In this document: positions 1,223-22,269 of the stretch, in pieces
Layout: every line of letters starts with the position of its first letter
How positions within the stretch are numbered: position 1 is the first letter of the stretch
DNA from: a bacterium
GTDB taxonomy: Bacteria; Babelota; Babeliae; Babelales; UBA12409
Assembly (NCBI GenBank): GCA_021823685.1
Contig: JAKANL010000005.1
Location: forward strand, 5,489-69,488
Length of the DNA stretch: 64,000 nucleotides
Reading direction: 5' to 3'
Program-made: the position numbers and the translations under genes
Notes under the pieces: model-generated
The model's input: the letters and a program-made list of their open reading frames with translations, nothing else
Databases searched by the model: none
What the model was told of the DNA's origin: nothing

Positions 1223-2488
1223 TTACTTTAACAACGCTCGTTGTTTATGCGCAAGAAATCGCTGCCGTAGCATCGCAGCTCGCGCCAAATCGTCCACCTG
1301 CGAACGCGATGCCAAATACTGCCTAATAAAAGAAACCCATTGGTTTGAAGAAGCAAACGGCGAATTGGCATACGATGGATACAAGACGTAGTATGGAAAA
1401 CAAATAGAAAGGCCCATGGCACGTGAATCTTCGTTGATCGCGGTGGTTGATATAACCGCGTTATGCAAAAGCACAAGCCCAGCTCTTAGTGCGGTTTCCA
1501 ATGATGTTACAATGGATGGATCGGTAACATTAAAATCGCCCAAATTTGCTATCACGGTCTGATACCAACGACCAAGATCAATGTACGAATAGAGGCTGAA
1601 ATGCAGACACGTATTGGAATACAAACAGTTTTGCAGCGTCGTCGAAACCGAGCTCCCAATTTGATTGCTCAAACACCGCTTCAAGAGCGTTGCAACAGTG
1701 TTTACATTACGCTCTAAAAGAAGCATTTTTGATAAGTTGATCGCTGAAAGAGTAACCGATTCCGAGCCATTTTTATAGAAAGCGTAGTAATCGCGCACCA
1801 AGCTTTTTGCAAAATTCACCGAAGACAATGTTCCTGTCCTAAATGGTCGCAACATGGCCGTATAGTTAAAACCATCATCGGGAACCGTCTCTTCAGAACC
1901 CACCATAATCGTGGCATATGGTGCCACCATTGCCCCAACTTCAATCATTTGCATCAAACATGCATCGTAGCCTAAAATGTCTATTTTACGATGTGTTGAT
2001 TGATACGCCGTCCTCAATGCATCGCGCAAATCAACGCTCCGCATCCAGGTTCGGTAGGTTTGGTCATAACAAATCGAACGATCGAGCGCAAAATCACCAG
2101 AGTTAACGTAACCACTGGCATGATCCCAAACATCGACAAAAATCTTTTTTGCTGAAAAATTTCTCATGCCATAAATCAAAAAATCGCTTAATGCTTTCTT
2201 GTTACTCGAATTTACCTTGCCCTGGTACACCAATCGTCGTGAACAATTTTTACAAATGGAGTAGCGCGACGTAGATCCACCAGGTTGCGTAATTTGCACG
2301 ATCACTTTGGCGTTATTATTAGAGCCGTACGTTTGGAGTTGCCGCATATTAAGCTGGGCGTATGGATACAAATTATTATTCGCCGCCATATAGATCAAAA
2401 TTAACCAATCAGAAGCTTCTACGGTAGCGCTTTGCGCAACGGCCAGTAACCCCCCAGCCAGAATCGATTGCCATAACTTCACATACAT
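1223..2488 (-). CDS. Secreted clostripain-like cysteine peptidase (peptidase C11 family)
   Basis: 421-aa ORF with an N-terminal signal-like segment (LAGGLLAVAQSATVEA). It carries WLILIYMAANNNL, VWDHASG and LGYDACLMQMIEV, which resemble the catalytic His/Cys blocks of C11 peptidases. Confidence 0.65.
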   Translation of the reverse strand: MYVKLWQSILAGGLLAVAQSATVEASDWLILIYMAANNNLYPYAQLNMRQLQTYGSNNNAKVIVQITQPGGSTSRYSICKNCSRRLVYQGKVNSSNKKALSDFLIYGMRNFSAKKIFVDVWDHASGYVNSGDFALDRSICYDQTYRTWMRSVDLRDALRTAYQSTHRKIDILGYDACLMQMIEVGAMVAPYATIMVGSEETVPDDGFNYTAMLRPFRTGTLSSVNFAKSLVRDYYAFYKNGSESVTLSAINLSKMLLLERNVNTVATLLKRCLSNQIGSSVSTTLQNCLYSNTCLHFSLYSYIDLGRWYQTVIANLGDFNVTDPSIVTSLETALRAGLVLLHNAVISTTAINEDSRAMGLSICFPYYVLYPSYANSPFASSNQWVSFIRQYLASRSQVDDLARAAMLRQRFLAHKQRALLK

Positions 2489-6060: not shown

Positions 6061-6753
6061 TTAGTCGTTGCGACGTTGTCCTAAAAACCGCAAAAGATAC
6101 AGAAAAAGGTTGATAAAATCTAGGTAAAGCGAAAGCGCCGATATAATCGAAACTTTGGCCATATCATCGCCTTCACCCAGCATATGCATACCGGCTTGCT
6201 TGATTCGTTGCACATCATAAGCAACAAAAAGCGTGAAAATAATAACGCCAAAGATCGATGTAATAAAATCAAACTGTGCGCTGCGCAAAAACATGTTGAT
6301 CAGACCCGCAATGATCAAACCAACTAAGCCCATGATTAAAAACGTACCCAAACCACTCAAATCCGATTTGGTCATCATGCCGTAGAGTGCCATAGCGCCA
6401 AACATACCGGCGCATACAAAAAACGTCAGCGCCAACGATGCACCCGTGTATACCAGAAAAAGCGTTGAAAATGTCATGCCCGTAAGTAACGCATAAAAAA
6501 CAAAGCAAGCCATTGCGGCTTCCTTTGACATGCGCTGAATACCAAATGATAAAAATAAGACAACGCCCAACTGCATAAGAACAAGAACAAGAATCAAACC
6601 AGGATGTTGTTTAAGCGCCAACTGCATGCCCGGAATCATATTCATGGCAACGGCAGTTACGCCGGTCAGCGAAAGGCCCAGTGTCATCCAGCCAAATACG
6701 CGACGCAAGAGCGTGCTGCCCGCCGATTCCACAGGATATTCAGAATACATCAT
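6061..6753 (-). CDS. Bax-inhibitor-1/YccA family membrane protein
   Basis: 230 aa with 7 predicted TM segments. It has RRVFGWMTLGL, FVAYDVQRIKQ and a basic C-terminal tail, as in BI-1/YccA proteins. Confidence 0.85.
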   Translation of the reverse strand: MMYSEYPVESAGSTLLRRVFGWMTLGLSLTGVTAVAMNMIPGMQLALKQHPGLILVLVLMQLGVVLFLSFGIQRMSKEAAMACFVFYALLTGMTFSTLFLVYTGASLALTFFVCAGMFGAMALYGMMTKSDLSGLGTFLIMGLVGLIIAGLINMFLRSAQFDFITSIFGVIIFTLFVAYDVQRIKQAGMHMLGEGDDMAKVSIISALSLYLDFINLFLYLLRFLGQRRND

Positions 6754-10226: not shown

Positions 10227-11537
10227 ATGCGAAAACTTTTTATGAAAAAAACAATAAAACTGCTTTTTGGTTTTCTTTTGATCCAGCGTTCGTTGATGGC
10301 TATGGATCTTTTTGACGCTATTAAAACGGAAAAATTTGATTCTGTACGTGCGTTGGTGGGTGAACATCCAGATATGGTAAATTCTAAAGACCGTGATGGC
10401 CGCACCGCGCTTTTAGTATCCGCAAGTTTGGGCAGATTAGAAATGGCGCAGTTCCTGGTTGAACAACGTGCTGATGTAAATGCCAAGACTTTGGCGGGTG
10501 TTACGGCTTTGATGGAGGCATCGAGCGGGGGTTTTCTTCCTATAGTGCAACTATTGCTTAGAAATGGTGCTCATGTAGATTCGCGAAAAGGTCCAGGGGG
10601 TGAAACTGCACTGTTTGTGGCTATGGGCAAGGGAGATCTTTCCTGCGTACGTGAATTAGTTACAACCGGGCATGCTGATTTGCGCATTTGTGATTATCGG
10701 GGGCATTCACTTTGGGATGTTGCGCGTGGTAAATGCAGGCATTCTAAGAATCACTTTACTGCACTACCCAATAAAGTTGAGCTTATTCGCTACCTCAACA
10801 GAATCTTGTATGATCCGGTAGACAAAGGGGATGTTGCATTAGTACAACAACTGCTTGGCCAAGGCGCAAGCGCGGATCCCTTGGAAGAAGAATTTATAAC
10901 ACACGCATCGATTAGTTCTTTGCCCGAGGAGGCTCAAACAGGTGAAACGGTGCTTATGCAAGCAACGGCTGCCGGTAATATAGAAATGACAAAAACCTTG
11001 CTGGCATATGGTGCCAACGTTGATGCACGCCGTAAGGATAATGGTGAAACGGCCATTCGCATAGCAGCGCAAAAGGGACTGGTTGAGATTGCGCAAGAAC
11101 TTCTTGCGCATGGCGCGAATGTCGATATTCCTGATAATCACGGTTATACGCCACTCATGTTGGCATCTATTGATAATATAGTTGGAATAGTCAGGGCGCT
11201 TCTTCCTCATACGCAAGCCATTGATGCCAAAAATAAAGATGGCAAAACTGCGCTCATGCTTGCTGCTAATGAAGTAATTGCGCAATTGCTTATTGATGAA
11301 GGTCATGCAAATGTAAATCTGGCAGACAATGCGGGAAAAACAAATCTTGAATATGCTGCGCAACTTGGCAATGCGCAATTAGTCGCGCTTTTGCTTCAGC
11401 ATAAGGCACGAGCTGGCATGGTAAAGGCATTTCAGTCTGCCTTTGCACGGCAGTCTGCAGAAGGATTCATAGAAACAGCAAAAGAGCTTTCTTTGTATAT
11501 GGCGCTGGAATCACTGCGTGGTAAAAAATCTGCGTGA
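10227..11537 (+). CDS. Secreted ankyrin-repeat protein (about 9-10 ANK repeats)
   Basis: Signal-like N-terminus MKKTIKLLFGFLLIQRSLMA|MD. It contains repeated G.TAL..A...G....V..LL..GA.V(D/N) units, for example DGRTALLVSASLGRLEMAQFLVEQRADVNA and NGETAIRIAAQKGLVEIAQELLAHGANVDI. Confidence 0.9.
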   Translation: MRKLFMKKTIKLLFGFLLIQRSLMAMDLFDAIKTEKFDSVRALVGEHPDMVNSKDRDGRTALLVSASLGRLEMAQFLVEQRADVNAKTLAGVTALMEASSGGFLPIVQLLLRNGAHVDSRKGPGGETALFVAMGKGDLSCVRELVTTGHADLRICDYRGHSLWDVARGKCRHSKNHFTALPNKVELIRYLNRILYDPVDKGDVALVQQLLGQGASADPLEEEFITHASISSLPEEAQTGETVLMQATAAGNIEMTKTLLAYGANVDARRKDNGETAIRIAAQKGLVEIAQELLAHGANVDIPDNHGYTPLMLASIDNIVGIVRALLPHTQAIDAKNKDGKTALMLAANEVIAQLLIDEGHANVNLADNAGKTNLEYAAQLGNAQLVALLLQHKARAGMVKAFQSAFARQSAEGFIETAKELSLYMALESLRGKKSA

Positions 11538-16866: not shown

Positions 16867-17709
16867 ATGAAATTATTGGCTCCTATTATCATGTTTTCTT
16901 GCTGCTGCACTATGCATGTGCTTAAGCCAGTTTGCTGTTCAACGTGCCCCTGCAACAAAAAGGCGCGCGACACTAAAGAATTAGTCAGACAAGCCTACGG
17001 CAAAGTCGCTCAAACGGGCGATTGTTGCGCCTGCGTTGGCGGCTGCTGCGGCGGCGGCAAAGATCTCTCGAAATATATTGGCTATTCTGAAGAAGAGCTC
17101 AAAAGTATTCCAGAGGCAGCTAACTTGGGGCTCGGGTGCGGCAATCCAGTTATGCTCGGCGAAATCAAAAAAGGGGCTACGGTTCTTGACCTGGGCTCTG
17201 GCGCTGGTATCGATTGCTTTTTGGCAGCCAGAAAGGTTGGGCCAACGGGTAACGTGATCGGCGTTGATATGACGCCTGATATGATCAAAAAAGCACGGGA
17301 AAACGCCAGCAAGCACCATTTTACGAACGTTGAGTTCCGGCTGGGAGATATCGAGCAATTGCCCGTCAAAAGCGATTCGGTTGATATCATTATAAGCAAC
17401 TGCGTTATCAATCTGGCGCCGCATAAAGATAGGGTATTTAAAGAAGCATATCGTGTCTTGAAAAAAGGCGGTAGCATGTATGTTTCTGATGTCGTTTTAC
17501 TTGCCCCGCTCACGCGAGCCCAGCATGACGACGTTAAATTACTCTGCGCCTGCGTTTCTGGGGCACTTCCTAAAAACGAATGCATCAAACGGCTCCAAGA
17601 AACCGGATTTAGCGTTAAAGTCGTAGGCCTAGATACCAGCATCAATAAAAAGTGGTTCAACGACAGCAAGCTGCCAATTGCTAGCCTTAAATTCATTGCA
17701 ACAAAGTAA
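16867..17709 (+). CDS. arsM: Arsenite S-adenosylmethionine methyltransferase (ArsM-like) with an extra Cys-rich N-terminus
   Basis: GLGCGNP, VLDLGSGAGIDCF (SAM motif I), SNCVINL and LLCACVSGAL match the conserved cysteine-bearing blocks of ArsM. The N-terminus has CCC, CC, CPC and CCACVGGCCGGG clusters. Confidence 0.75.
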   Translation: MKLLAPIIMFSCCCTMHVLKPVCCSTCPCNKKARDTKELVRQAYGKVAQTGDCCACVGGCCGGGKDLSKYIGYSEEELKSIPEAANLGLGCGNPVMLGEIKKGATVLDLGSGAGIDCFLAARKVGPTGNVIGVDMTPDMIKKARENASKHHFTNVEFRLGDIEQLPVKSDSVDIIISNCVINLAPHKDRVFKEAYRVLKKGGSMYVSDVVLLAPLTRAQHDDVKLLCACVSGALPKNECIKRLQETGFSVKVVGLDTSINKKWFNDSKLPIASLKFIATK

Positions 17710-19666: not shown

Positions 19667-20881
19667 ATGTATGCCCGTGAGATGAAAAAGATCATTAAAG
19701 AGTATGAAAACTTCCCCGTGATCGCCTTTCTCGGCCCTCGGCAATCCGGAAAAACGACCCTTGCTCAATTGGCTTTTCCTAAACACAAATTTGTTTCTTT
19801 GGAGCATCAGCCTACCCGGCAATTTGCCATGACCGAGCCGGAACGGTTTTTACAAACACACGAAAATGAACATGGAATTATTTTAGACGAGTTTCAAAAC
19901 GTCCCGGAAATCCTTTCATATATTCAGCTCGAAGTTGATGCAAAAAAGAGAAAGGGCTATTTCATCTTAACCGGCTCACAAAATTTTTTGATGAATCAAG
20001 CAATTACCCAATCGCTTGCCGGACGCGTCGGTATTCTCACGCTCATGCCGCTTTCACTGCAAGAACTCACCAGCAATCATTTATTGCCTAAAGACGTTCA
20101 TGAAATTGTTTTCAACGGTTTTTATCCGCGGCTTTACCAGGAAAAGCTTAAGCCTGATCGCTTTTACCCGTCATACCTTCAAACGTACGTCGAACGAGAT
20201 GTCCGCCAATTAATTAATGTTGGCGATTTGGCCACCTTTCAAAAATTTATCCAACTCTGCGCCGCGCGCATTGGCAATCTTCTTAATCTTTCAGACTTGG
20301 CAACCGTATGCGGTATAAGTGTTACCACGGCCCGCCGGTGGATATCGCTATTACAGGCTAGCTATATTATCTTTTTGCTCGAGCCGCATTTTAAAAATTT
20401 CAATAAACGCCTCACTAAAATGCCCAAGCTCTATTTTTATGACACCGGCCTGGCATGCGATTTATTGCGCATTGAGTCGCCCCAAGACCTCTTAATTAAC
20501 CCGTATTGGGGCGGTCTGTTTGAATGTTTTATGATTGCTGATATCGCAAAACAATACCTCAATCAGGGTAAACGTCCACCCATATACTTTTGGCGCGACA
20601 AAAACGGCCGAATTGAAATTGACTGTTTGATTGATCGCGGCGGCACATTAATTCCAATCGAAATCAAGGGAAGCCAACGAGTCACGCAAGAATTTCTTGA
20701 TGGATTGAAACAATGGAATGAGCTGGCTCATGGCTCAAAAACATCAACACCGGCAAGCAAGAAAAGTTTTCTTCTGTATGCCGGAATGGAGGCGCAATCG
20801 CGTAAAGATGCCATCGTTGTACCGTGGACAAAATGTGCGCAACTAATCAAACGCATAACCGCTAAAAAATCAGCAAACTAA
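19667..20881 (+). CDS. AAA-type ATPase with C-terminal DUF4143-like domain
   Basis: 404 aa. Walker A LGPRQSGKTTLA, Walker B GIILDEFQ, YLQTYVERDV, and the C-terminal YFWRDKNGRIEIDCLI...IPIEIK, which is typical of the ATPase/DUF4143 family. Confidence 0.8.
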   Translation: MYAREMKKIIKEYENFPVIAFLGPRQSGKTTLAQLAFPKHKFVSLEHQPTRQFAMTEPERFLQTHENEHGIILDEFQNVPEILSYIQLEVDAKKRKGYFILTGSQNFLMNQAITQSLAGRVGILTLMPLSLQELTSNHLLPKDVHEIVFNGFYPRLYQEKLKPDRFYPSYLQTYVERDVRQLINVGDLATFQKFIQLCAARIGNLLNLSDLATVCGISVTTARRWISLLQASYIIFLLEPHFKNFNKRLTKMPKLYFYDTGLACDLLRIESPQDLLINPYWGGLFECFMIADIAKQYLNQGKRPPIYFWRDKNGRIEIDCLIDRGGTLIPIEIKGSQRVTQEFLDGLKQWNELAHGSKTSTPASKKSFLLYAGMEAQSRKDAIVVPWTKCAQLIKRITAKKSAN

Positions 20882-21528: not shown

Positions 21529-21567
21529 GCTAGAATCGCCGTAGAAAGTTAATTTCAAAGGAATTGC

Positions 21568-22269
21568 ATGCGTGTTTTCGTGTTTCTCTTCGCATTTTTA
21601 TTTTTGATTACGCAAGCACAAGAAGTCACTGACAATAAGACACTCATCGACCGCGTTTATCAAAACATCAGCGGCTATCATATCGATGATCAAGAACGTC
21701 AACTCATTGAAAAAAGTGGTGGCAATCCAACGTATGGCGAAATTACCCACGCAGGTTCACAAAAATTGGCCGAAGTTATGGAGCTCACCAAAAAAGACGT
21801 TTTTTATGATTTGGGCAGCGGTGTCGGCGCAAATGTTATTAGAATTTACCTGGAAACACCGGTAAAAAAAGCAATTGGCGTGGAACTTGCTGCGTCTCGC
21901 CATGCTGGTGCACAAAAAGCCAAAGAAGAACTACTCAAACAAAAAAAGTTGAACAAAAAACGCAAACTCGAATTTCGTGAGGGCGATATCGCTTTGGCTA
22001 AAATTGATGACGCCACCGCAGTCTTTATGAATTCGCTTTGTTTTTCCAATGATTTTATGAAGGTACTCACAGAAAAACTTTCGCGCCTCAAACCGGGATT
22101 GCGCGTTGCCACGCTACGGCAAATTGAAGATCAAGAACATTTTAAACTCAAAGGAATTTATACCATTCCAATGTCCTGGTCAAAGAATTCAACGGTATAT
22201 GTTTACACGCTCGAAAAGCGTAATAAAGCCAAGAAAAAACACGTAAACAAACCATCAATAAAAGAATAA
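21568..22269 (+). CDS. DOT1-like SAM-dependent methyltransferase with N-terminal signal peptide
   Basis: Signal-like MRVFVFLFAFLFLITQAQ|E. The ordered blocks YGEI, DVFYDLGSGVGANV, IGVE, REGDI, AVFMNSLCF, LSRLKPGLRV and MSWSKNSTVYVYTL parallel DOT1L blocks YGET, DLFVDLGSGVGQVV, YGVE, ERGDF, VIFVNNFAF, FANMKEGGRIV and VSWTGKPVSYYLHT. Confidence 0.7.
   Translation: MRVFVFLFAFLFLITQAQEVTDNKTLIDRVYQNISGYHIDDQERQLIEKSGGNPTYGEITHAGSQKLAEVMELTKKDVFYDLGSGVGANVIRIYLETPVKKAIGVELAASRHAGAQKAKEELLKQKKLNKKRKLEFREGDIALAKIDDATAVFMNSLCFSNDFMKVLTEKLSRLKPGLRVATLRQIEDQEHFKLKGIYTIPMSWSKNSTVYVYTLEKRNKAKKKHVNKPSIKE

Follow-up and report, generated by a model that had tools for sequence, protein, structure and literature searches.

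The 64,000-nt stretch of bacterial DNA analysed here (the window) carries a gene whose 233-aa product resembles DOT1, and the question it raises is whether this protein is delivered to a host and, if so, what it methylates there. The initial annotation proposed a secreted DOT1-like effector acting on host chromatin. The ORF starts with ATG and its translation is the one reported initially (Table 1). LeuRS encoded in the window shares 60–63% identity with proteins of TM6, Dependentiae and Babeliales, and we place the window in a Dependentiae (TM6) genome on this basis. Members of this widespread phylum are obligate parasites that live on protists, and the lifestyle that had been surmised for the organism fits this obligate host dependence, the presumed effectors of the phylum being exported via Sec.

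We began with family membership, for which four lines of evidence agree. Against Pfam, the protein scores 74.1 bits with DOT1 (PF08123; E = 1.4e-20; gathering score 23), and the next-best family, Methyltransf_2, reaches 23.5 bits. The top phmmer matches in the PDB are DOT1-type enzymes only, with 9ne1 at 4.6e-16 and DOT1L at ∼9e-9. A family profile gave E values of 1.4e-37 for 9ne1, 4.5e-23 for DOT1L and ∼1e-15 for both Dot1p and aKMT. The AF2 model (pLDDT 93.8, pTM 0.87) has the secondary structure of a class I methyltransferase, and all 50 of the 50 PDB matches listed by Foldseek are DOT1 enzymes or aKMT; the best is 9ne1 (TM 0.70/0.79, 28% identity), with Dot1p and DOT1L among the top. The profile search and the structure prediction, both proposed initially as checks, thus bear out the assignment to DOT1 as opposed to a generic methyltransferase. 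Judged by sequence and model, the product is a true class I methyltransferase of the DOT1 family, with predicted catalytic activity.

Table 1. Features of the DOT1-like gene and its product (window coordinates)
Feature	Position	Strand	Basis
CDS, 233-aa DOT1-like SAM-dependent methyltransferase	21568..22269	+	Stop codon included; ORF, PF08123, AF2, Foldseek
Shine-Dalgarno-like AAAGGA	21557..21562	+	5 nt upstream of ATG; read from sequence
Predicted Sec signal peptide, residues 1-17 (MRVFVFLFAFLFLITQA↓QE)	21568..21618	+	n/h/c layout by inspection, hydropathy
DOT1-type catalytic core, residues ~25-215, seven-strand Rossmann fold	21640..22212	+	phmmer, family profile, AF2
YGE motif, Y56 G57 E58 (DOT1L Y136 G137 E138)	21733..21741	+	Invariant in 115 sequences
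Motif I DLGSGVG (D81-G87), SAM-binding DxGxGxG	21808..21828	+	Aligns to DOT1L D161, G163, G165
N155 (DOT1L N241)	22030..22032	+	Alignment
C-terminal SW...Y.Y block (W204 to Y213)	22177..22206	+	W204 and Y213 invariant in 115 sequences
Basic, NLS-like tail EKRNKAKKKHVNKPSIKE	22213..22266	+	Contains KRNK, fitting K-K/R-x-K/R; putative function

Every motif string initially listed for the query is present in the protein: YGEI (residues 56–59), DVFYDLGSGVGANV (77–90), IGVE (103–106) and REGDI (137–141), and, in the C-terminal half, AVFMNSLCF (151–159), LSRLKPGLRV (171–180) and MSWSKNSTVYVYTL (202–215). The DOT1L strings set against them agree with the HMMER alignment as far as residue 270; the DOT1L VSWTGKPVSYYLHT block lies outside that alignment and presumably matches the corresponding segment. 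The phmmer alignment to 9ne1 spans query residues 27–205; with the family profile, 9ne1 is covered from residue 26 to 216. Across the 115-sequence family alignment, D81, L82, G83, G85 and G87 are invariant, as is E106, the post-I acidic residue. D140 aligns with DOT1L D222. W204 and Y211/Y213 presumably correspond to W305 and Y312/Y313 of the DOT1L lysine channel. The N155 column has no majority residue in the family consensus, with C, A or S in 14 aligned close relatives, and the neighbouring S156 is nearly invariant. The family has conserved gate loops of its own, GGxPTYGE and xSxCFS; the GGxPT element precedes YGE, and G51, nearly invariant in the family, occupies the position of DOT1L F131. 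By sequence comparison, the protein keeps the SAM-site and predicted lysine-channel residues, as does LpDot1, the Legionella enzyme represented by 9ne1.

LpDot1 (lpp3025, L. pneumophila) methylates the host nuclear protein SFPQ at K518, does not methylate histones, acts as a virulence factor and is placed among the Dot/Icm type IV secreted nuclear effectors in a 2026 preprint, in the text of which we found no translocation assay (10.64898/2026.01.11.698932). The same preprint links differences from DOT1L (N-terminal domain, loop 273–286, helix 319–331, F131) to the histone inactivity of LpDot1, and cites DOT1L F131A as abolishing H3 methylation (10.64898/2026.01.11.698932). By sequence, profile and fold, LpDot1 is the nearest solved relative of the window protein, ahead of DOT1L. 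Both are single-domain proteins of ∼230 aa, colinear from the pre-YGE helix to the SW motif; both lack the DOT1L loop, helix and F131; and the bacteria that encode them both multiply within protists. However, they are just ∼28% identical and belong to separate clades. The window protein bears a Sec-type signal, whereas none is mentioned for LpDot1 in its preprint, and it alone of the two has a basic C-terminal tail. The gate loops also differ (GGNPTYGE and MNSLCF versus RDAIEYVYGE and INSSTL in LpDot1), and the substrate may therefore differ as well.

In its minimal form, then, the LpDot1 type (a single-domain DOT1 core of ∼200–250 aa, no nucleosome-binding elements, 9ne1 as nearest solved relative) is what we find in the window protein, but its mode of delivery (type IV repertoire, no Sec signal) is not, as the window clade bears a Sec-type signal. 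We group the protein by its predicted architecture with LpDot1-type bacterial and giant-virus enzymes and not with nucleosome-specific H3K79 writers, and on this basis a non-histone or non-nucleosomal protein is the likelier substrate. The initial annotation was not aware of any characterised secreted DOT1-type bacterial effector. This is outdated: LpDot1 has been characterised, its structure is available, and it is presented as a secreted effector. In addition, DOT1 homologues of Dependentiae had been assigned to the Legionella/protist/giant-virus clade in a review of 2022 (PMC10117894). On both counts the premise of novelty is unsupported. The finding alone reveals no new kind of system.

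Small DOT1-like proteins form a large family in bacteria associated with protists, with 981 cluster representatives at E ≤ 1e-10. The window protein is one of its members, of which we used 115 sequences for the family alignment, 121 relatives for a survey of N-termini and 127 members for comparison of the tails. When species-representative genomes were scanned with a 15-sequence alignment as query (best match 47–48% identical), relatives came mostly from intracellular or protist-associated lineages. A relative was also found in a giant virus: the Hyperionvirus protein A0A3G5AC17 (218 aa) has the same minimal size (E = 2.8e-16, TM 0.70/0.74, 28% identity) and matches the fold as well as LpDot1 does, although it is viral and uncharacterised. 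DOT1-domain proteins of giant viruses have been assigned to a common amoeba-associated gene pool (PMC10117894).

Is the protein exported? By inspection and hydropathy, its N-terminus has the attributes of a Sec (SPase I) signal: a positive n-region (M-R), an h-region of 12 residues (VFVFLFAFLFLI), within the 7–15 range, and a c-region (TQAQ) with small residues at −3/−1, followed by acidic residues. The Sec-type signal claimed initially therefore stands in its n/h/c layout, but not in its cleavage site: the −3/−1 rule makes cleavage after A17 (T-Q-A↓Q) likelier than the AQ↓E site, one residue later. Rule-based scoring of cleavage sites over the family was abandoned, since AxA-like patterns arise so often by chance that they do not discriminate. 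The AAAGGA element backs the annotated ATG, which argues that the hydrophobic N-terminus is translated, and we found no plausible downstream start that would bypass it, the sole internal option being a TTG at codon 13 that lacks a Shine-Dalgarno element.

A hydrophobic N-terminal segment is present in ∼110 of the 121 relatives retrieved (∼90%), and long multi-domain relatives have one as well. Its distribution follows clade: Dependentiae and Finniella-type alphaproteobacteria have the signal, whereas the 200–234-aa forms of Gammaproteobacteria, Francisellaceae and Legionellaceae are without it. A few relatives (P0031, P0034 and P0067) lack the segment. In one subclade it is longer (∼17–20 residues), has no obvious cleavage site and looks anchor-like, suggesting that some family members may remain bound to the bacterium. 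In a Legionella clade of 249-aa proteins, an N-terminal helix is followed by a KKK cluster, from which the domain is predicted to face inward.

The signal had also been taken to set this protein apart from housekeeping enzymes, but as a distinguishing mark it carries less weight than was then given to it. By a crude measure, 26 of the 45 ORFs in the window have a signal-like N-terminus. In the cultured Dependentiae bacterium C. destructans, signal peptides are found on 44% of CDS, a share that rises to 78% among ankyrin proteins; the signal-bearing proteins are regarded as its effector set, and outer-membrane vesicles have been observed (PMC6561590). Given how common signals are in both phylum and window, a signal alone is weak evidence for an effector. 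Type II secretion, for which gspD is present in two copies, belongs to the TM6 core genome (PMC4776705).

Genomic context was examined next. The gene is flanked by a lipoprotein-like ORF on one side and a small membrane ORF on the other. Six flanking proteins were compared by tblastn with 80–83 related loci, and only one, an AAA_14/DUF4143 ATPase, recurs near DOT1-like genes (at L013, L015 and L016, on either side); the lipoprotein-like and 63-aa flanking ORFs have no homologues at these loci. With the flanking genes not kept across the related loci, we rejected a conserved operon, and the lack of a conserved neighbour means that gene context offers no functional pointer. A weaker copy of the ATPase gene (33% identity) lies ∼4 kb from the DOT1-like gene at L031. 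Ankyrin-repeat and orphan secreted neighbours had been cited initially in favour of host manipulation. An ankyrin-repeat protein does exist, and many ORFs without Pfam matches have signal-like N-termini, but the ankyrin gene (10227–11537) is 10 kb from the DOT1-like gene. No other DOT1-like paralogue was found in the window. The only other match there is an unrelated class I methyltransferase (16867–17709, E = 0.008), which lies near the DOT1-like gene and also has a hydrophobic N-terminus. Promoter and terminator counts between 19400 and 22700 did not stand out from those obtained with shuffled sequence. The composition of the gene (GC 0.40, GC3 0.38) compares with a GC of 0.45 for the window and 0.41–0.46 for its other genes, and is indecisive as to recent horizontal acquisition.

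The C-terminal tail is the most basic among the 127 family members compared and is retained in P0121, a sister protein of 92% identity. AF2 gives it a pLDDT of ∼70 and no regular structure. Tails of this NLS-like kind are missing from most relatives, and similar ones appear sporadically in separate clades. The basic residues may hint at nuclear targeting.

We conclude, with a probability of about 0.6, that the gene encodes a minimal, single-domain protein lysine methyltransferase of the DOT1 family from Dependentiae, exported and host-directed, and of the LpDot1 type as opposed to an H3K79 writer. To this extent the secreted DOT1-like effector proposed initially is plausible. Synthesised with a Sec signal peptide that is then cleaved off, the protein would enter the periplasm. 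Its route from there to the host protist would most likely be the type II secretion system of the TM6 core genome, or else outer-membrane vesicles. The mature enzyme of ∼216 aa would then methylate one or more lysines of at least one host protein, using host SAM, and its basic tail may bring it to the nucleus or to substrates bound to nucleic acid.

A wider and more tentative reading, which we think possible but on balance doubtful, extends to the whole clade. Here, Dependentiae and Finniella-type alphaproteobacterial endosymbionts would share a large DOT1-like clade delivered by Sec and then type II secretion or vesicles, with no type III or type IV injection. The window protein would have gained its NLS-like tail independently, and would enter the protist nucleus as a true nucleomodulin and methylate a chromatin-associated protein, possibly a non-nucleosomal histone. 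RomA/LegAS4, NUE and Rv2067c embody the same concept of an exported methyltransferase acting on host nuclear proteins, but none is homologous to the window protein. RomA of Legionella and NUE of Chlamydia have SET domains, unlike the DOT1-fold window protein, and reach the host by type IV and type III secretion, respectively. Rv2067c of Mtb, which targets H3K79 in a non-nucleosomal context (PMC10739865), is absent among the PDB and Pfam relatives of the protein.

Could the enzyme instead stay in the bacterial envelope? A periplasmic or membrane-bound form might methylate proteins of the bacterium itself, in its periplasm, in its outer membrane or at its surface, with host-derived SAM, which could enter the periplasm of an intracellular bacterium. 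A Sec signal by itself reaches only the periplasm, the N-termini of some family members resemble anchors, and the gene sits between ORFs for a lipoprotein-like and a small membrane protein, with the second methyltransferase and its hydrophobic N-terminus nearby. There is also precedent in obligate intracellular bacteria for lysine methylation of a surface protein, OmpB of Rickettsia. However, no SAM-dependent protein methyltransferase established as periplasmic is known to us, and the flanking genes are not conserved. Moreover, the family extends to giant viruses and Legionella, the characterised Legionella member acts on a host protein, and NLS-like tails would make no sense in the periplasm. 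We therefore regard an envelope role as unlikely.

Also considered was the target named initially, host chromatin, with the protein entering the host nucleus and methylating H3K79 of nucleosomes, or an equivalent lysine, as Dot1/DOT1L do. Several observations favour it. DOT1 is the top Pfam family, and the window protein shares both PF08123 and the class I fold with Dot1p/DOT1L (1nw3, 1u2z, 6nj9). It keeps YGE, DxGxGxG, the GVE glutamate, equivalents of D222, N241 and F245, and residues of the W305/Y312 type, so that the presumed lysine channel (W204, Y211/Y213, N155) is retained. Its tail is similar in character to the lysine-rich 390–407 region of DOT1L, which is reportedly needed for nucleosome binding (Min et al. 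2003). Trypanosome DOT1A (E = 3e-11 to the window protein) is compact, at 257 aa, and is nonetheless an H3K76 enzyme.

Identity to Dot1p/DOT1L is 20–22%, and the window protein differs from them in its bacterial signal peptide and in having no long C-terminal region. Against an H3K79 target, the N-terminal helical domain of DOT1L is absent, with ∼30 residues between signal peptide and YGE. DOT1L residues 269–280, 287–293 and 320 onward are unpaired in the alignment, in which ∼15–19 residues of 269–293 are missing from the window protein, including most of loop 273–286. HMMER alignments to DOT1L end at ∼270–275, whereas those to LpDot1 run through, and the AF2 model has no helix beyond residue 215, hence no counterpart of helix 319–331. 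In DOT1L, this loop and helix contact H2A/H2B and ubiquitin, and F131, replaced here by G51, positions H3K79. None of the elements expected of a nucleosomal H3K79 enzyme (loop and helix, F131, N-terminal domain) was found, and these departures from DOT1L are those of LpDot1, the closest characterised homologue, which is inactive on histones (10.64898/2026.01.11.698932). The family's own conserved gate loops likewise suggest a substrate other than H3K79. The H3K79 target is thus unsupported, and we consider it quite unlikely.

Least probable of all is a cytoplasmic or inward-facing housekeeping methyltransferase like aKMT/aKMT4 of Sulfolobus (5fa8, 5jwj), with the hydrophobic N-terminus a mere tether or an annotation artefact: weak aKMT matches (archaeal family NF041081, 37.9 bits; 5fa8, 5jwj), the few relatives without the segment and the Legionella clade predicted to face inward speak for it, but NF041081 demands 200 bits by its curated cut-off, far more than was scored here, the h-region is too short to span a membrane, the charges around it (positive before, acidic after) predict that the C-terminal domain is translocated, the Shine-Dalgarno element is good at the ATG and wanting at codon 13, the segment is kept in most relatives, and these are mostly host-associated. 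The aKMT enzymes do share the DOT1-related minimal lysine methyltransferase core (the basis of their profile match), although they are ∼160 aa, cytoplasmic and of broad specificity, and lack both the N-terminal helix/YGE region and the C-terminal SW block.

If the wider, nucleomodulin reading is right, this would be the first Sec-dependent effector of the DOT1 type and an entry to how TM6 bacteria reprogram their hosts. As far as we know, no Dependentiae effector has been characterised biochemically, and a small, well-folded, single-domain enzyme whose catalytic site is clear and whose relative LpDot1 has a solved structure is an unusually tractable place to start. The identity of its substrate would reveal a host process targeted by Dependentiae, and its signal peptide gives a handle on how Sec-exported proteins of this phylum get to the host. 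More widely, the finding extends the picture of a pool of DOT1-like genes that circulates between protists, giant viruses, Legionella and further endosymbionts, and shows that one catalytic module is joined to delivery signals that vary from lineage to lineage.

The DOT1-like gene, preceded by an AAAGGA element 5 nt 5′ of its ATG, comprises 233 codons, and its translation is identical to that in the initial annotation, with all seven motif blocks listed there found in the same order. The resemblance to DOT1 was confirmed by a search with PF08123 (74.1 bits, E = 1.4e-20; gathering score, 23), while the Pfam runner-up, Methyltransf_2, reached only 23.5 bits. No NCBIfam model scored above its cut-off against this protein, the best being NF041081, the archaeal protein-lysine methyltransferase (37.9 versus a cut-off of 200). 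An AlphaFold2 model built from 115 relatives (mean pLDDT 93.8, pTM 0.87) arranges its strands and helices in the order typical of class I methyltransferases, and every one of the 50 PDB hits listed by Foldseek is either a DOT1 enzyme or the DOT1-related archaeal aKMT. These include 9ne1 ("bacterial DOT1L methyl-transferase"; E = 5e-16, TM 0.70/0.79, 28% identity), as well as yeast Dot1p and human DOT1L (TM about 0.65–0.68, 20–22% identity). Membership of the DOT1 family is virtually certain.

In the alignment of 115 sequences, Y56, G57, E58, D81, L82, G83, G85, G87, G104, E106, R111, W204 and Y213 are invariant. DOT1L equivalents are Y136, G137, E138, D161, G163, G165, E186, W305 and Y312 or Y313, where W305 and Y312/Y313 lie beyond the part of the DOT1L segment verified by HMMER alignment (residues 105–270). 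R111 is specific to the family, neither DOT1L nor LpDot1 having a counterpart. D140 aligns with DOT1L D222 and N155 with N241; N155 falls outside the conserved columns, and close relatives have C, A or S there. Because the catalytic residues of DOT1L are matched, the protein is equipped to bind SAM and to form a DOT1-type lysine channel. The organism that encodes this DOT1-family fold, with its SAM and lysine site intact, is host-dependent.

By inspection and hydropathy, residues 1–17 look like a signal peptide: the n-region (M-R) is positive, the hydrophobic core (VFVFLFAFLFLI) is 12 residues long, and the polar c-region, T-Q-A, precedes Q-E-V-T-D. A Sec signal had been proposed initially, and the signal-type N-terminus is indeed present, but the −3/−1 rule favors cleavage after A17, one residue earlier than proposed. 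The core is not a membrane span, as 12 residues are too short for the bilayer, and the charge distribution of the N-terminus predicts that the C-terminal part is translocated. The sole in-frame alternative start 5′ of the conserved domain, a TTG at codon 13, lacks a ribosome-binding site, and bypass of the hydrophobic segment by a downstream start does not seem plausible. This signal-like segment is conserved: a strongly hydrophobic N-terminal 10-mer occurs in 109–113 of the 121 relatives retrieved, those lacking it are mostly N-terminally truncated, and long multi-domain or multi-DOT1 members have signal-like starts too. Two forms can be distinguished, one (including the window protein) with a short h-region and an AxA-like site, the other a subclade with hydrophobic segments of 17–20 residues, which look more like uncleaved anchors. 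Export of the window protein is quite likely, and its action in the host somewhat less so. We consider it unlikely that the enzyme instead acts on the envelope, drawing on host SAM in the periplasm.

LpDot1 (lpp3025 of Legionella pneumophila) was characterized in a January 2026 preprint (bioRxiv 10.64898/2026.01.11.698932), and its structure, 9ne1, followed in February 2026. LpDot1 is active, yet it does not methylate histones in vitro; its substrates are nuclear non-histone proteins, notably SFPQ K518, and during infection it alters paraspeckles and splicing (bioRxiv 10.64898/2026.01.11.698932). No explicit translocation assay for LpDot1 was found in the text of the preprint. LpDot1 lacks loop 273–286 and helix 319–331 of DOT1L, and A72 replaces F131 (same preprint). 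Against our family profile, LpDot1 scored E = 1.4e-37, colinear between residue 26 and the SW motif (216), compared to E = 4.5e-23 for DOT1L, whose alignment ends at about residue 274. In a pairwise alignment with a DOT1L segment (residues 105–270 verified by HMMER alignment; numbering agrees with the preprint), DOT1L 269–280, 287–293 and 320 onward are unpartnered in the window protein, and F131 aligns with G51, which is nearly invariant in the family. With these segments unpartnered and F131 aligned with glycine, the window protein has exactly the features that the preprint ties to loss of nucleosome recognition. Hence the host-chromatin H3K79 role envisaged initially does not follow from the evidence, the nucleosome-binding elements being missing as in LpDot1, and a true H3K79 or other histone writer is unlikely. 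The gate loops (GGNPTYGE and MNSLCF; family consensus, GGxPTYGE and xSxCFS) are unlike those of LpDot1 (RDAIEYVYGE and INSSTL), and so the substrate need not be SFPQ.

After its last strand, the window protein ends in EKRNKAKKKHVNKPSIKE. Its last 20 residues (this tail plus the preceding TL) contain 8 K/R, making it the most basic tail among 127 family members, and KRNK fits the monopartite pattern K-K/R-x-K/R. The tail is kept in the 92%-identical sister protein, P0121. Similar tails are sporadic (11/127 in all), including IKPRKRKKR and KLDRKRKRRV in alphaproteobacterial members, RLVRKKR in several others, and a histone-H1-like AKKTPAKKAVKPRSP at the C-terminus of the double-DOT1 protein P0242. 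Such tails may hint at nuclear or nucleic-acid targeting.

The LeuRS of the window shares 60–63% identity with proteins named TM6, Dependentiae or Babeliales, with only metagenomic sequences closer, and the nearest named relatives of the DOT1-like protein (45–54% identity) belong to the same phylum. Scanning 185,579 species representatives, which do not include the window's species, yielded 175 relatives (best match, 47–48% identity), with titles spanning Dependentiae, TM6 and Babeliales; Finniella and other Alphaproteobacteria; Amoebophilus; Francisellaceae, Legionella, Berkiella and Coxiellaceae; and Sericytochromatia, Vulcanimicrobiota and Myxococcota. Intracellular or protist-associated lineages make up the majority of the titled groups. 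When a library of 1.84 billion cluster representatives was scanned in full, there were 3082 matches at E ≤ 1e-3, of which 981 passed E ≤ 1e-10 and 116 passed E ≤ 1e-30; a 218-aa protein of Hyperionvirus, a giant virus, matches the model of the window protein as well as LpDot1 does. The signal tracks clade, being present in Dependentiae and Finniella-type alphaproteobacterial proteins (e.g. MKRFLFFFLVFSLICDPSLA|EPADP) and absent from the 200–234-aa forms of Gammaproteobacteria, Francisellaceae and Legionellaceae. A 249-aa Legionella clade (loci L059–L075) has a hydrophobic N-terminal helix, MFYFIITIPFLLVILKLLLTN, with a KKK-rich stretch after it; membrane anchoring is predicted for this form, which is separate from the 227-aa LpDot1 type. 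Several relatives (P0242, P0243, P0257, P0288, P0300; 480–930 aa) carry two or three DOT1 domains, and in P0273 (1035 aa) a DOT1 domain is joined to another methyltransferase domain; signal peptides start P0242, P0273 and P0299, the ones whose sequences were read.

DOT1-like genes occur in every Legionella species according to a 2022 review, which places "Candidatus dependentiae", Amoebophilus, Berkiella, Megaviridae and protist homologues in one clade and infers that horizontal transfer recurred between organisms associated with amoebae (PMC10117894). In the literature searched, a single paper mentions Dependentiae together with DOT1. The premise that no secreted bacterial DOT1-type effector had been characterized is now out of date, given LpDot1 and this earlier note of Dependentiae homologues.

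Features of the window, by position
Feature	Position	Strand	Remarks
Clostripain-type C11 peptidase	1223-2488	-	signal-like N-terminus
Bax inhibitor-1 family membrane protein	6061-6753	-	PF01027 at 1e-54
Ankyrin-repeat protein, 436 aa	10227-11537	+	Ank_2 E 2e-59; signal-like N-terminus MRKLFMKKTIKLLFGFLLIQRSLMA
Second class I SAM methyltransferase, 280 aa	16867-17709	+	Methyltransf_31 E 1e-41
AAA_14/DUF4143 ATPase	19667-20881	+	just upstream of DOT1-like gene
Lipoprotein-like ORF, 208 aa	20902-21528	+	LLLLLSGC lipobox, repetitive beta-rich sequence, no Pfam hit
DOT1-like gene	21568-22269	+	ATG start
Membrane ORF, 63 aa	22280-22471	+	no Pfam hit
MscS-type mechanosensitive channel, 1213 aa	22472-26113	-	unusually large
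ORF run: 388, 631, 529, 566 aa	31847-38485	-	signal-like N-termini, no significant Pfam family
ORF run: 214, 243, 228, 231 aa	43807-47573	-	signal-like N-termini, no significant Pfam family

The gene's surroundings are housekeeping (ribulose-phosphate epimerase, LeuRS, GroEL, UvrB, S1, EF-P, SHMT). That the enzyme itself is a cytoplasmic or inward-facing housekeeping one is very unlikely. No conserved operon was found in the related loci, where immediate neighbors vary except for the ATPase, homologues of which (58% identical) lie within 2 kb of DOT1-like genes, on either side, in three other Dependentiae-type loci (L013, L015, L016). This could be chance landing of a multicopy gene or mobile linkage. 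Neither the 208-aa nor the 63-aa flanking ORF has homologues in 80 related loci. The neighboring ankyrin-repeat protein invoked initially is real but lies 10 kb away; with its signal-like start, it is typical of presumed Dependentiae effectors. Many window ORFs have signal-like N-termini and no Pfam hit, in line with the orphan secreted neighbors noted initially, and the two ORF runs are candidate orphan secreted protein clusters. The second methyltransferase has a hydrophobic, cysteine-rich N-terminus (MKLLAPIIMFSCCCTMHVLKPVCCSTCPC) and could likewise be exported, or else lipid-anchored. The MscS-type channel has a coiled-coil-like N-terminal region of about 560 aa after its signal-like start.

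In C. destructans, 44% of CDS encode a signal peptide, as do 78% of those for ankyrin-repeat proteins, these proteins are regarded as host-manipulation apparatus, C11 peptidases are among the secreted hydrolases listed, and outer-membrane vesicles were observed (PMC6561590). Type II secretion, with gspD present in two copies, is among the functions encoded by TM6 core genes (PMC4776705). We propose that the window protein is an exported DOT1-type enzyme that methylates one or more host proteins, and put the probability of this mechanism as a whole at roughly 0.6. The protein would be exported by Sec and cleaved by signal peptidase near A17, would cross the outer membrane via the phylum's type II system or vesicles, and would methylate lysines of its host targets where SAM is available, with the basic tail possibly directing it to the nucleus. 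A secreted DOT1-like effector, as first suggested, therefore stands as a candidate on the basis of the DOT1 fold, the signal-like N-terminus and the host-dependent organism. The novelty is modest and lies in a signal peptide that is clade-wide in the Dependentiae and Finniella-type branch of the family, in the lack of nucleosome-binding elements in this branch, and in the NLS-like tail on the window protein itself.
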